A stretch of 64,000 nucleotides of DNA from Eledone cirrhosa (lineage: Eukaryota). Numbering within the stretch: the first letter of the stretch is position 1; each line of letters begins with the position of its first letter. The stretch is taken from assembly GCA_964016885.1 (NCBI GenBank), contig OZ024743.1, positions 256,246,001 through 256,310,000 of the forward strand, written 5' to 3'. This document shows, in pieces, positions 28,584-62,800 of this stretch. A program made the position numbers and the translations under genes. The notes below the pieces were generated by a model. That model ran no database searches and had not been told where the DNA came from. It saw only the letters and a program-made list of their open reading frames with translations.

Positions 28584-29841
28584 GTATATACATTAAGCAT
28601 TTTAAAAATATATAAATACAAAATATGCACAATATATACATACAAAATATACAATATAAAATATGAAATATGAATTAGAATTTAAATTATGAATTATGAA
28701 TTTTTTGTACCCATCATAGGAATTTTCAGAAAAAACTCCTTCTTCAAATCTTTCAGTACGTTTATCAAGAAAAGTTTTTCAAGAAAAAATCCTTTTAAGA
28801 TAGTTATAAGCAGTCATATGAAGGAATCTAATGAATTATCGATAGGTTTAATAAAGATGAGTTATGTATTACAATTTATATATATATTTAAACGTTGATT
28901 TCAATCTTGTTTGCAAGAACTGAAAAGATTTCTTCTTAAATTAACAGAATTTTTACTTTTTAATATAAAGAATATTTCTTCTATACAAAGAGCGCAATTT
29001 TCAGAAGAAGCATTGAATGGAGGAGCTTTGGAGATAATATTCCAAAGTAAAGAATAGTTAGTGTTCTTTGATTTTAGGTCACATAGTAAATTAGATAGAG
29101 AAGTTGAAGATTTTTTATTTATATTCGTAAAAGAGCATTTATGGTTATTAAAACGAGACTTAAAATCTGTGGAGGTAGAGCCTACATAATTAAATGAATT
29201 TAAATTAGTTTTTACATTACAATTATAAACTATATTTTTAACTAAACAATTGTTATTTAACGGACAGTTAGATTTATTTCTACAGTTACATTTATCAAAA
29301 TTTGAGTTTCTATGTGCCGTATTATTCAGTTGGATATTGCTGGGGTTATTAATGGTATTCTGGTTAGGTTTTAAGTTTCTATTATTAATTCTATTAATAT
29401 TCTGCGCTAATTTACGAATATAAATAAAAAATCTTCAACTTCTCTATCTAATTTACTATGGGACCTAAAATCAAAGAACACTAACTATTTTTTATTATCT
29501 CCAAAGCTCCTCCATTCAATGCTTCTTCTGAAAATTGCGCTCTTTGTATAGAGGAAATATTCTTTATATTAAAAAGTAAAAATTCTGTTAAAATACTGTT
29601 TTTAAACCTTTCCAACACTAATTTGCATAATAAACCAACAATAAATCTAATAACTCCACTATCCAGGATATTCCAACCAGAATGGTTGCATTTTTTAAGC
29701 GTATGTCAATATTTATTTATAAAACTAACCTATATTATATTTTATCTGATGAAAGCGCACCATAGTTTGCTGAGGTGGCTCTTGAAATATGTATAATGAA
29801 ATAAATATGGTTTTATAAATATAGTTTCCATTTGTTAATAT

Positions 29842-43674: not shown

Positions 43675-43973
<299 letters not shown>

Positions 43974-43974
<1 letters not shown>

Positions 43975-45106
43975 TTAATGCAATGAAATATCTATGATCG
44001 TCGGCAAATCACTGATGAGGGACTTATTTTATTACATGTTATCCATGTGCAACCTGCAGTATTTTTCTCCCCATTTTTTCACATATATTTACCTAATCTG
44101 CGATTCTGTATTTTTCTCTCTCTCTCTCTTACTGCTACCTCGTTATCTCTGTTTCTCCTACTTTCTTTCGCCCCCTCTGTCATGTCAGTTAACTCTTCCT
44201 CACACTTCCACTCACTCACTGTTTCTCCTCTTCTCACTTCACCCTGTTCGCGACGAAAACATTTTCTCTCTTTCTCACATTTGAATTCGTTCCCGAAAGG
44301 TCTTTTTTCTAAGCGCTCATATATTCACCTAGCTTATGCTAACAGAATAACTATGAAGCTTGTTCCCTTCCTTCTACAGTTAGCTCTCCTCTTTGTTGTT
44401 ATCTTGTCTCACTCGCTTTACGCGTTTTAATTGTCCTAATAACTTAATTTAGTTATTATTGCACCGACGTGAGGTATATGATTTTTAATGCAATGAAATA
44501 TCAATGATCGTCGGCAAATCACTGATGAGGGACTTATTTTATTACATGTTATCCATGTGCAACCTGCAGTATTCTTCTCCCCATTTTTTCACATATATTT
44601 ACCTAAACTGCGATTCTGTTTTTTTCTCTCTCTCTCTCTCTTACTGCTCCCTCGTTCTCTCTGTTTCTCCTACTTTCTATCGCCCCCTCTGGCATGTCAG
44701 TTAACTCTTCCTCACACTTCCACTCACTCACTCACTGTTTCTCCTCTTCTCACTTCACCCCGTTCGCGACGAAAACATTTTCTCTCTTTCTCACATTTGA
44801 ATTCATTCCCGAAAGGTCTTTTTTCTAAGCGCTCATATATTCACCTAGCTTATGATAACAGAATAACTATGAAGCTTGTTCCCTTCCTTCTACGGTTAGC
44901 TCTCCTCTTTGTTGTTATCTTGTCTCACTCGCTTTACGCGTTTTAATTGTCCTAATAACTTAATTTAGTTATTATTGCACCGACGTGAGGTATATGATTT
45001 TTAATGCAATGAAATATCTATTATCGTCGGCAAATCACTGATGAGGGACTTATTTTATTACATGTTATCCATGTGCAACCTGCAGTATTCTTCTCCCCAT
45101 TTTTTC

Positions 45107-45108
<2 letters not shown>
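43974..45108 (+). mobile_element. ~510-bp head-to-tail tandem element (2.2 units), retrozyme/pLTR-like
   Basis: CTGATGA at 44012, 44522 and 45038; (TA)n flanks; homologous array at 59198-59940 on the minus strand. Confidence 0.9.
44433..44533 (+). ncRNA. Candidate non-circularly permuted hammerhead ribozyme (copies 44949-45049 plus; 59258-59358 and 59804-59904 minus)
   Basis: GGTAT-A-TGATTT ... T-GAAA-TATC ... AAATCA-CTGATGA-G; six helices; covariation between copies. Confidence 0.65.
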
Positions 45109-45144
<36 letters not shown>

Positions 45145-45149
45145 GCATA

Positions 45150-45198
<49 letters not shown>

Positions 45199-45205
<7 letters not shown>

Positions 45206-58380: not shown

Positions 58381-58897
58381 CATCATTGTCATCATCATCG
58401 TTCAACGTCCATATTCCACGCTTGCATGGGTTTGGATGGGAGTTTTCCCACTTGAGGCAAGAGTGATTGTCTTGCTCGCATAGGACTGTCTGGCGGGTTT
58501 TCTACGGCTGGATGCCCTTCCTAACACCAACCACGTTTACAGTGTGAACTGGGAGGTTTTTACCGTGTTACCGACACGGCCACATTACAGCGTGGACTGT
58601 GTTTTTTTGTCGTGATACCTACACGACCTCATTTGTTTCGGACTGGATGTTGTGGTACCAACATAACTTTACATTGAAAGGGATTTGTGTGGGTGGGGGT
58701 AGTGGGGCGGGGGTGTATTTTGTTAGAGGTGCCTACTGACTGTAGTAGGTTTCACTTTGTACTTAGGTAAGGCGGGTCTTCTCTATTACTGTGTAGCGCC
58801 AATAATAGAGAAGACCCGCCTTACCTAAGTACAAAGTGAAACCTACTACAGTCAGTAGGCACCTCTAACAAAATACACCCCTGTCCCACTACCCCCA
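58381..58897 (-). mobile_element. RTE 3' end with fold-back duplication
   Basis: Matches 12117-12590; arms 58694-58788 and 58803-58897. Confidence 0.85.
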
Positions 58898-58977
58898 TAT
58901 ATATATATAACGAAGGAAATGTGGTAAGGAACCAGATGGACCATAACGCACCAAATTACATATATATATATATTATA

Positions 58978-59202: not shown

Positions 59203-59936
59203 AATATGGGGAGAAGAATACTGCATGGTTGCACATGGATAACATGTTATAAAACGAGTCCCTCATCAGTGATTTGCCAACGGTCATTGGTATTTCATTG
59301 CATTAAAAATCATATACCTCATGTTGGTTCAATAATAACTAAAATAAGTTATTAGGACAATTAAAACGCGTAAAGCGAGTGAGACAAGTAAACAACACAG
59401 GGGAAAGCTAACCGAAGATAGGAAGAAACACGAGCTACATAGTTATTCTATCAGTATAAGCTGGTAAGAAATAGACCTATCAGTATAAGCGAGTAAGAAA
59501 TAGACCTTTCGCGATGAATCCGATGTAAGAAAGAAGGAAATCGTTTTCGTAGCGAACGGGGGAAAGTGAGAAGGGGAGAAACAGTGAGTGAGTGAGTGGA
59601 AGTGCGAGGAAGAGGTCAGTAGAGAGAAAGTGTTAACTGACATGACAGAGGGGACGAAAGAAAGTAAGAGAAACAGAGAGAACGAGGGAGCAGTAAGAGA
59701 GAGAGAGAGAGAAAAACAGAATCGCAGTTTAGGTAAATATATGTGAAAAATATGGGGAGAAGAATACTGCATGGTTGCACATGGATAACATGTTATAAAA
59801 TGAGTCCCCCATCAGTGATTTGCCAACGGTCATTGGTATTTCATTGCATTAAAAATCATATACCTTATGTTGGTGCAATAATAACTAAAATAAGTTATTA
59901 GGACAATTAAAACGCGTAAAGCGAGTGAGACAAGTA

Positions 59937-60167: not shown

Positions 60168-60530
60168 TAGAGTTGAGAAGGAGGGTCTGTGGGTTTTCTC
60201 ACATCTGGTTGGTCTCTGAATGTTACTTGTTTAAATGGAAAAGTGGCTCGAAATGCCAGGTTTTTCGAGAAGTAATTTGATTGGTTGATCAATAATTATA
60301 ATAAATGTTGCGCCAGTTCGCGTTACAAAGTTGTTCAAACAAGGGGGGGGGGAGGTCACAGGTTGTTTTTTCATATATGAGTGTTTGAATTTCTTTTTAC
60401 TTAAAAAAAAGGGGTCTCACGAAGGCTTTTTTTTAATAAACGTAATTTGATTGGTTATAAATGAAATTATGGCTGTCACGTGAACAAATAAGGGCGCGAA
60501 AATTTAATGAAAACTTGTTCACGTGACAGC

Positions 60531-62176
60531 TTGATGAATGGCTTGTGAAAGCTGTACAAGCGATGTACAGGGGAGCAGTCAGTAAAGTTAGGGTTAACAA
60601 TGACTATAGTGAGGAATTTAGCATACAGGTCGGTGTCCAGCAGGGCTCTGTTCCTAGCCTGCTTCTGTTTATTATAGTCATCATCATCACCGTTTTACGT
60701 CCGTTCTTCCACGCTAGCATGGGTTAGACGGGTTGTCCTGTTGTGGGCAGTGTCTGGTCGGCTGACCATGCCTTGCTCATACAGGAACTGATTTGGCTAG
60801 ATTTCTACAGCTGGATGCCCTTCCTAACACCAACCTCATTTACAGTGAGTGCTGGGTGCTTTTTCGTGGCGCCTACACGTCCACTTTACAGTGTGGGCTG
60901 GGTGCTTTTTTGCCGTGGCACCTCCATGACCACCTCGTGGTGGTGGTGGTGTGTGTGTGGGGGGGGGGGGGGGGCATAATATCTATATAGTATTGAAGGC
61001 TATAACAGAAGAGTTTAAGACTGGATGTCCATGGGAACTCCTGTATGCAGATTGTCTTACACTTATATCTGAATCTATGGCAGAACTAAATAAGAAATTC
61101 CAAACATGGAAGCAGGGACTAGAAAGGAGTCTCAAAGTCAACTTGATAAAGACTAAGGTCCTTATAAGTAGACGAGAAAACAGAACCCGGATCCCCTCAG
61201 GGAAATGACATTGCTCAGTATGTAGGAAAGGTGTAGGTAGGAACTCCATCCTCTGCCCCAAATGTAAACTATGGGTACACAAGAGATGTAGTGGGATCTC
61301 AGGAAGCTTAGTTAAGAATGTAGGCTTTAGATGTAGCAGTTGCACCGGGACAGTAAGCAGCAAACAGCCACAGGAAACAAGCTCCACCAAACTCTGGGAG
61401 GGCTCTGTAGAAACAGTAGACAGCTTCTGCTACCTAGGTGACCGAATTAGGTGTGGAGGTTGGTGTTTGGAAAGTACAGTAAACAGGGTAAGAACGGTAT
61501 GGAAGAAATACAGGGAGCTACTGCCACTGCTAGATGCAAAAGGCTTTTACCTCAAAATGAAAGGCAGACTGTATGATGCATGTATACAAACAGCAATGTT
61601 ACATGGTAGTGAGATCTGGGTACTGTCTGTGGAAGACTTACATAGATTAGAAAGAAACGAAGCTTGCATGCTCCGATGGATGTGTAATAGTAATATACGC
61701 GAACGGCAAAGCATAAACAAATTGAGAGTGAGACTGAGCATAAGAGGAACCAAATACTGTGTGCAGGAGAGGAGGTTGCATTGGTATGGACATGTGATGC
61801 GTATAAAGGATGACAGCTGCAAAATAAGGTGCAGAGCTCTAGAAGTCAATGGAAGCCTTGGAGTGGGGAGACCCAAGAAGACCTGGGATGAGGTGATAAA
61901 AGACGACCTTACCCAATTACACCTCTCAAAGGCGATGGCATAGGAGCGTGACCTCTGGCGTCACGCAGTAATACAGAGTACCATACATTGTAAATGAGTT
62001 TGCTGCTAGTAAGGGCATTCAGCTGTAGAAATATAGCCAAAATCAGTTCCCGTATGAGCAAGACAAGGTCACCCGACCTGGCACTGCCCACAACAGGAAA
62101 ACCTGTCTAACCCTTGCTAGCGTGGAAGAATTGACACTAAAATGGTGATGATGAGGATGATGATGCTGATGATGCT
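60531..62176 (+). mobile_element. RTE LINE, 5'-truncated, with a nested inverted RTE tail at ~60679-60965
   Basis: VGVQQGSV, PWELLYAD, Cys-rich segment, LYDACIQTAMLHGSE, GRPKKTWD; (GAT)n tail. Confidence 0.92.
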
Positions 62177-62600: not shown

Positions 62601-62800
62601 CATTGGAATGATAGGGACCCCCAGTCCTATCATCTCATTTCTACAGCTGAGTAAACCGGAACAATGTGAAATAAAGTGTCTTGCTCAAAGAAACAACACA
62701 TCACCCGGTCTGAGAATTGAACTCACAACCTTTCGATTGCAAGCCCAATGCTCTAACCACTAAGCCATGCGCCTTCATATATGTATGTGTATATATATAT

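Follow-up and report, generated by a model that had tools for sequence, protein, structure and literature searches.

Hammerhead ribozymes with a reversed cyclic order of their core strands were described by Eckert, Friedrich, Weinberg and Weinberg in 2023 (PMC10085705), who treat the ribozyme as three blocks, S, G and C, and validated two types, SGC and CSG. In the portion of that paper available to us, the sources are metatranscriptomes and metagenomes, with no genome of a known organism among them, and type CSG is known from two metagenome sequences only. Four helices are essential in SGC-3, and monomeric SGC ribozymes cut in cis. Block C, composed of CUGAUGA and its stem II strand, was assumed to be unbreakable, and the published SGC descriptor requires CGAAA together with an unbroken block C.

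Among animal retroelements, work on retrozymes by Li, Clavereau and Pollet (2026, bioRxiv 10.64898/2026.07.22.740005) searched for type I hammerheads only and, in the text available, leaves SGC unmentioned; the available part of a 2026 octopus repeat annotation (PMC13282606) does not contain the word 'ribozyme'. For the Naiads, a group of Penelope-like elements (PLEs), Craig et al. 2021 (PMC8557442) reported no canonical hammerhead, flagging some entries 'HHR_core' or 'HHR_half_core', and called the cephalopod Naiads long inactive, as far as the accessible sections extend; head-to-head inversions are described there for Penelope-like elements. A search of the literature outside subscription journals and Repbase found, in the accessible text, no SGC-type or split hammerhead described in animals or Naiads, and the term 'type-SGC' in PMC10085705 only.

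We describe a motif from an octopus genome that has the S-G-C order with a split stem II. A first-pass annotation could not say whether this architecture belongs to a known rearranged class. The S-G-C order is already known, as type SGC; what the available part of PMC10085705 does not contain is a stem II that is split, or an occurrence in an animal retroelement.

Architecture of the motif and its array

The window, the 64,000-nt stretch of the Eledone cirrhosa assembly that was analysed, is AT-rich animal DNA. A full, intact split-SGC hammerhead (family A) occupies positions 44433–44533 of its forward strand, with all pairs checked and a score of 132.5 bits against model R1. The strands CUGANGA, GAAA and UH that characterize the hammerhead are present and are joined by stems I, II and III. 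The cyclic order C-G-S and the three-way junction of types I, II and III are absent; the blocks run S-G-C within one unit, which bears out the reversed order UH, GAAA, CUGAUGA recognized in the first-pass annotation.

Block S (44473–44484) comprises the 5′ strand of stem III (44473–44477, with U16.1 at 44477), H17 (A44478) and a strand of stem I (44479–44484), and the predicted cut follows A44478. A linker of 4 nt (44485–44488) leads from stem I to stem II. Block G (44489–44502) contains the 3′ strand of stem II (44489–44493), U11.1 (44494), GAAA (44495–44498) and the 3′ strand of stem III (44498–44502), and block C (44516–44529) contains the second strand of stem I (44516–44521), CUGAUGA (44522–44528, with a variable N7) and G10.1 (44529). 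The pairing of each block was checked.

After CUGAUGA, only G44529 continues stem II. The rest of that strand, like the strand that forms the bridging helix, is located 5′ of the cut site, and a four-way junction connects both to the core. This junction is closed by P0 (44433–44436, paired with 44530–44533), and an 8-bp hairpin forms one arm (44437–44458, with strands 44437–44444 and 44451–44458). The displaced 5′ strand of stem II (positions 10.2–10.6; 44459–44463) pairs with 44489–44493. Helix X, which bridges stems I and II and is the counterpart of helix 'I' of HRIMA-1, is formed by 44464–44469 and 44509–44514. The core-proximal pair 10.1-11.1 is a G-U (G44529-U44494) rather than the Watson–Crick G10.1-C11.1, and in this copy an alternative junction register, slid by one pair, is possible (A44458-U44494 with U44437-G44529). 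Every strand and pair of the first-pass annotation was recovered at its position with complete pairing in the seven helices checked (stem III with one G-U); its 'extra helix', our helix X, is present with a compensatory change, at a length of 6 bp and not 5.

The motif sits in a non-coding repeat of 510–550 nt. The cut-to-cut unit at 44479–44994 (+), the predicted monomer RNA, is 516 nt long and pyrimidine-rich, and the cut-to-cut units in the window measure 510, 516 and 546 nt. The tandem array lies between two (TA)n runs. On the 5′ side, an unstranded (TA)n run (43944–43971) precedes a 5′-truncated ribozyme copy (43974–44023, +), so that the array begins approximately 5 nt past a predicted cut. 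A second full copy (44949–45049, +) is followed by a 3′ tail (45050–45107, +); the array stops approximately 112 nt past the last predicted cut and (TA)n follows (45107–45199). Two related copies lie on the reverse strand, one with a mismatch in distal stem II (59258–59358) and one with A9G (59804–59904); these lesions, and the change to CCAAC/GTTGG in helix X of both copies, are as first reported. A descriptor composed of the core, stems I and III and the upstream stem II strand matches two of the four full window copies, the other two escaping through their lesions, and has no match in 300 dinucleotide shuffles of the window.

The window holds other elements. A short element with a terminal palindrome lies in the TA run adjoining both ribozyme arrays (43830–43945 and 58909–58958) and also occurs beside copies elsewhere, for example at locus L054. 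An inverted repeat at 58700–58900, with arms of approximately 95 bp and adjoining a TA run, is likely another 5′-inverted insertion. Positions 60500–62000 contain a decayed LINE coding fragment, which we take to be RTE-like, and 62710–62767 (−) a tRNA-like stretch (31.2 bits) that is probably a SINE head. PLE coding fragments occur at about 28.9–29.4 and 31.8–32.8 kb, and ordinary type I hammerheads of Penelope-type elements, below Rfam gathering scores, at 29746 (+), 51249 (+), about 35184 (−) and 27460 (−).

Pairing and conservation across copies

The fold was assessed on two alignments of genomic copies. The first, a sequence-only alignment, comprises 41 copies hand-picked from 85 distinct ones. 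In it 95.5% of cells are paired (91.5% in P0), and two-sided changes are found in 19 of the 35 pairs, distributed over stem I (5/6), helix X (5/6), stem III (2/5), distal stem II (2/5), the hairpin (3/8), P0 (1/4) and the pair 10.1-11.1 (1/1). The covariation score was reached by none of 500 shuffles, and slid registers pair in 29–45%. RNAalifold by itself recovers the nested part, namely the hairpin, helix X and stem III.

The second alignment comprises 47 representatives of 176 distinct copies and was analysed with a tree-aware test of our own, modelled on R-scape and chosen because the copies are related. Predicted pairs make up seven of the 12 column pairs ranked highest, and four of the 35 pairs reach E < 0.05, three in helix X and one in stem I; no pair of stem III, P0, the hairpin or 10.1-11.1 is individually significant in this test on the 47 representatives. 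Alignment of genomic copies, which had been put forward as a check, revealed compensatory changes across diverged families. These lend support to the reversed cyclic order, to a four-way junction that takes the place of an ordinary helix II, and to a pseudoknotted fold of the monomer. The feature is real, well beyond what chance would give, and the structure is almost certainly correct as drawn.

Single-sequence folding does not single out the motif (z of −0.85 to −1.99), and the 516-nt unit is not strongly self-paired (z of −0.12). The Rfam hammerhead models, a comparison also proposed at the outset, give no match to the motif at the gathering score or at E values up to 10. The weak folding and the absence of an Rfam match are what can be said for a satellite-like repeat in which hammerhead-like words and helices arose by chance in AT-rich DNA. 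The Rfam result says little, because Rfam equally misses the ordinary type I hammerheads of the window. The empty shuffles and the compensatory changes in crossing helices argue against chance, as does the presence of the same fold, with largely different helix letters, in Naiad entries from coral, box-jelly, crustacean and octopus in the available part of the published set. We find chance hardly credible, and already close to refuted.

The core columns are conserved at 0.98 compared with 0.78 for the helices among the 47 representatives, a difference that is partly built in, as the search pattern for many rows fixes GAAAU and CUGANGA. In hammerhead chemistry, H17 cannot be G. Among the same representatives, H17 is A in 23, C in 23, U in one and G in none, and N7 is U in 42 and C in 5. 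With H17 never G and N7 free, the hammerhead rules are kept.

The weakest point of the fold is the pair 10.1-11.1, which forms in 68% of cells in the 41-copy alignment and is A.A in 14 of the 47 representatives. By family, it is G-U (A, B), A-U (B, D), U-A (F) or G-C (E), with A.A or C.A in family C and a few others. At L081:2900–3377 lies a relative of the unit whose 5′ truncation leaves it starting with the CUGAUGA block; its family has C at 10.1.

Genomic copies, insertion pattern and a proposed mechanism

A relaxed pattern covering blocks G and C has 19,267 matches in the 3.0-Gb assembly, compared with one for a reversed control. BLAST-type genome searches with four query families returned 649, 1,936, 2,178 and 941 candidates, of which 40 were scored for each, and the first 100 of the 19,267 pattern matches hold several further families. 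The number of copies in each family, obtained with BLAST and patterns, is a lower bound; another pattern, with 3,570 matches, excludes families A, C and D through spacing or letters. In family D, at least 40 copies on four contigs are identical over 151 nt, and copying is therefore recent. Diverged families retain the core, with compensatory changes. A metagenome match to the motif was rejected as chance, lying within a bacterial membrane-protein gene, as was a viral match from which the helices are absent.

Most copies are single, as in family B and at 18 of 30 family-D loci, which lack a second intact core in tandem. This bears on the suggestion, made in the first-pass annotation, that the ribozyme may be assembled across tandem units: the fold would be real and would cut, yet as a dimer or between neighbours, S and C of one unit combining with G of another in a conventional type II or III order. 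Covariation does not distinguish cis from trans pairing, animal hammerheads of type I are known to cleave as dimers (PMC7229834, available part), and tandem arrays exist, with at least 13 units at one locus. Against these points stand the prevalence of single copies, the closure of all seven helices within 101 nt, the cis cleavage of monomeric SGC ribozymes of the same connectivity (PMC10085705) and the single motif, at the 3′ end, of the Naiad consensi in the part of the set available to us. Assembly across units is thus the less likely arrangement, and we consider cleavage in that form very improbable. In the array of at least 13 units (L063–L064, contig C4 near 291.44 Mb), two or three unit variants alternate and several carry A9G; it may be a later tandem amplification or derive from a multimeric template.

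The insertions have fixed 3′ ends, ragged 5′ ends, 5′-inverted copies and a microsatellite target, the features of non-autonomous Penelope-like insertions. In family B, 35 of 39 arms end at about +107 to +128 of the predicted cut, in (TA)n. When all loci are taken together, two clusters account for 138 of 142 3′ ends, the family-D cluster being inflated by 30 loci retrieved with a query that contained the TA junction. Head-to-head inversions occur, and in 6 of 15 an arm starts between −6 and +5 of the predicted cut (binomial P of about 0.001 at an estimated p of 0.09 per event); a sixteenth inversion was dropped, having been picked by a pattern for the inversion feature itself. The 159 5′ ends taken together show a mild excess at the cut, with 9 arms (7 events) after removal of 6 artefacts, compared with 1–5 in ten neighbouring bins. 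Symmetric inversions at the cut, found at three loci and at none for a control offset, are too few to weigh. We read the inversions at the cut as the footprint of templates ending there. Nearly all insertions read through the cut site intact, which implies that most templates were re-joined or uncut.

The same read-through would also fit a fold that is a relic of an active Naiad hammerhead and whose main role now is to give the Penelope reverse transcriptase a structure to hold, with cutting slow or lost in these families. The G-U, A.A or C.A core-proximal pair of many families and the occurrence of A9G copies in arrays point the same way. A mere handle does not account for catalytic residues that stay fixed while the helices turn over between families, for the avoidance of G at H17 or for the clustering of inversion junctions at the cut. 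A weak base of helix II is also found elsewhere, as U.U in an axolotl hammerhead family (PMC7229834, available part) and as U-G in a type I hammerhead that an abundant PLE carries in this genome. We therefore judge the handle explanation improbable.

Run X4 is RNA, as a contig joins two GAPDH exons at a depth of about 17,900 compared with 2.4 for the intron. It contains 31 contigs over the repeat unit, one of which, of 342 nt, has 7 differences and 4 gaps. The repeat family is thus transcribed in one sample, as shown by contigs that carry no ends, strand or level; with some 19,000 copies, the repeat could also be transcribed passively, by read-through. A rise in X4 depth from 33 to 800–1,070 near 44471–44478 was not used as an RNA start, since contigs do not reveal where an RNA begins and the alignments of other families are confined to the region downstream. 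Runs X1 and X2 have no coverage of the unique GAPDH stretch, so that they could not be classed as RNA or DNA in this way, and X5, from a second organism with few contigs over the unit, was left out as cross-species support.

We propose that the motif is a self-cutting hammerhead, with a predicted cut after A44478, that serves a non-coding repeat copied by a Penelope-like retrotransposon. Cleavage very likely occurs; the mechanism as a whole, including the putative circles and mobilizing enzyme, we regard as probable. Local folding of read-through transcripts would follow as soon as they include the CUGAUGA block, 44 nt past the cut site, and one cut per unit would yield the 516-nt monomer. Its ends would be held by four helices (P0, distal stem II, X and III; 20 bp), a clamp expected to favour re-joining into a circle, by the RNA itself or by RtcB. 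A Penelope-type endonuclease would then nick (TA)n, and the freed end would prime on an AU-rich site approximately 113 nt past the cut. Reverse transcription back through the joined site could give arrays with a fixed 3′ end, a ragged 5′ end and anything from one unit to at least 13; if the template is cut and unjoined, the enzyme would stall at the cut and may switch strand, leaving inversions there. Both the fixed 3′ ends in (TA)n and the enrichment of inversions at the predicted cut suggest that a putatively self-cut RNA is copied in the Penelope manner.

Relation to Naiads and to published hammerheads

Eight Naiad entries from File S5 of Craig et al. 2021, inspected by eye at their 3′ ends in the available part of the file, share this S-G-C core and also have a helix X, the hairpin and P0: Naiad_Obim, Naiad_Ovul, Naiad_Amil, Aacu, Anas, Naiad-2_Movir and two entries whose header was outside the part seen, one of them crustacean. 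They cover coral, box-jelly, crustacean and octopus, with wide divergence of the helix letters from phylum to phylum; loop and linker words of the octopus entries recur in the repeat described here. Five nematode entries (three from Nippostrongylus and two with headers likewise outside that part) parse by eye as type CSG with a long bridging helix. In total, 13 of the 54 consensi parse with a reverse-cycle hammerhead, a count that covers part of the set; within that part, the 3′ ends of Naiad-1_Chem, Naiad-1_Movir, Naiad-Ppla, Naiad_CGi, Naiad_Mcor and Naiad_Omin gave no clean parse.

According to the same material, the Naiads share with the repeat (TA)n targets, 5′-inverted copies and fixed 3′ ends, and the octopus consensi end in the same fold with a similar hairpin loop and linkers. 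They differ in encoding an EN-RT protein, which the repeat does not, and in the make-up of stem II: in the Naiad entries it lies wholly with the upstream strand (G-C11.1), with 0–1 nt between CUGAUGA and P0, whereas the repeat keeps G10.1 after CUGAUGA. The 3′ end of a Naiad element is the likely ancestor of the repeat. This genome lacks the exact octopus-Naiad motif, and old Naiad-type copies are present (69 pattern matches compared with 11 for a control). Loci L273–L292 belong to an old family, now decayed, that has the Naiad-type fold, in which the upstream G pairs with C11.1; none of these 20 copies has a Naiad-like ORF motif within 5 kb upstream.

As Craig et al. describe the cephalopod Naiads as long inactive, the enzyme acting now may belong to another clade. 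A very abundant Hydra-clade PLE (49,567 candidates; DKT motif and C-terminal GIY-YIG) was observed with an intact 785-aa frame and (TA)n targets (L241:1212–3566, C4 near 61.69 Mb, and L065–L094). Its hammerhead is of ordinary type I, with U-G at 10.1-11.1 and a long stem II. This PLE, which lies beside one array, is a candidate helper for the repeat; it was ruled out as the parent by the type I hammerhead and the lack of a sequence match to the unit. In the loci sampled, no coding Penelope or Naiad element is joined to the motif, nor is the frame expected of an autonomous Naiad, an N-terminal GIY-YIG plus RT. PLE fragments occur at 25 of 199 motif loci, at 11 of them on the same strand within 2.5 kb; ten of these are cut off by a TA run and the eleventh has a short TA at the usual 3′ end.

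We lean towards a broader view in which Naiads across animal phyla kept a hammerhead in reverse-cycle form, as CSG in nematodes and with the four-way junction in cnidarians, crustaceans and octopuses, its backbone broken beside the catalytic A9. The tens of thousands of non-coding derivatives here would then be a retrozyme class missed by standard searches, the 20-bp end clamp making an efficiently self-circularizing RNA. This would offer a direct answer to why Naiads seemed to thrive without a hammerhead. Hammerheads that no circular permutation can produce had come from environmental RNA whose hosts are unknown; the repeat brings them into animal genomes, in many copies and with tissue at hand. 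Descriptor and Rfam searches miss the motif, and ribozyme counts in animal genomes are therefore likely too low. RNA ends clamped by four helices could also be useful for circular RNA production.

Like metazoan non-LTR retrozymes (Cervera and de la Pena 2020, PMC7229834; Li, Clavereau and Pollet 2026; available parts), the repeat consists of non-coding tandem units of a few hundred nucleotides, with one hammerhead per unit and low GC, in many dispersed copies; no LTR, PBS or PPT is seen, and it co-exists with Penelope-like elements. Those retrozymes carry type I hammerheads and form highly self-paired circles, whereas the repeat has the split-SGC order, is not strongly self-paired and is known from genomic DNA and RNA contigs, its circles being putative.

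With type SGC (HRIMA-1; PMC10085705, available part), the motif shares the S-G-C order, the short stem I–II linker (4 nt compared with about 3), the bridging helix, the two crossing pseudoknots and the core residues, and all four helices essential in SGC-3 have a counterpart here; the bridging helix has compensatory changes in 5 of 6 pairs. In type SGC, the stem II and bridging strands follow CUGAUGA, the RNA begins at block S and 10.1-11.1 is G-C, whereas here both strands lie 5′ of block S and are rejoined via the P0/hairpin four-way junction, the window copy has G-U and the motif is an animal genomic repeat rather than a metatranscriptome sequence. CUGAUGA(U)G is not followed directly by two or more further stem II pairs in combination with CGAAA: the comparison with published rearranged hammerheads, also suggested at the outset, found the C/G part of the SGC descriptor in 0 of 172 distinct copies, and it is by requiring CGAAA and an unbroken block C that this descriptor missed the motif. 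As it lacks both the unbroken block C of SGC and the type I motif of the non-LTR retrozymes, we class it as a variant of known hammerheads. With the CUGAUGA block and its strand of stem II interrupted, which a stated design rule holds to be impossible, it presents a new topology to solve. Type CSG has the same reversed cyclic order and a bridging helix; it is opened between stem III and the bridging helix and has no four-way junction. The strand orders suggest that HRIMA-type SGC, CSG and the form described here are three openings of one closed reverse-cycle topology, which is opened here inside block C.
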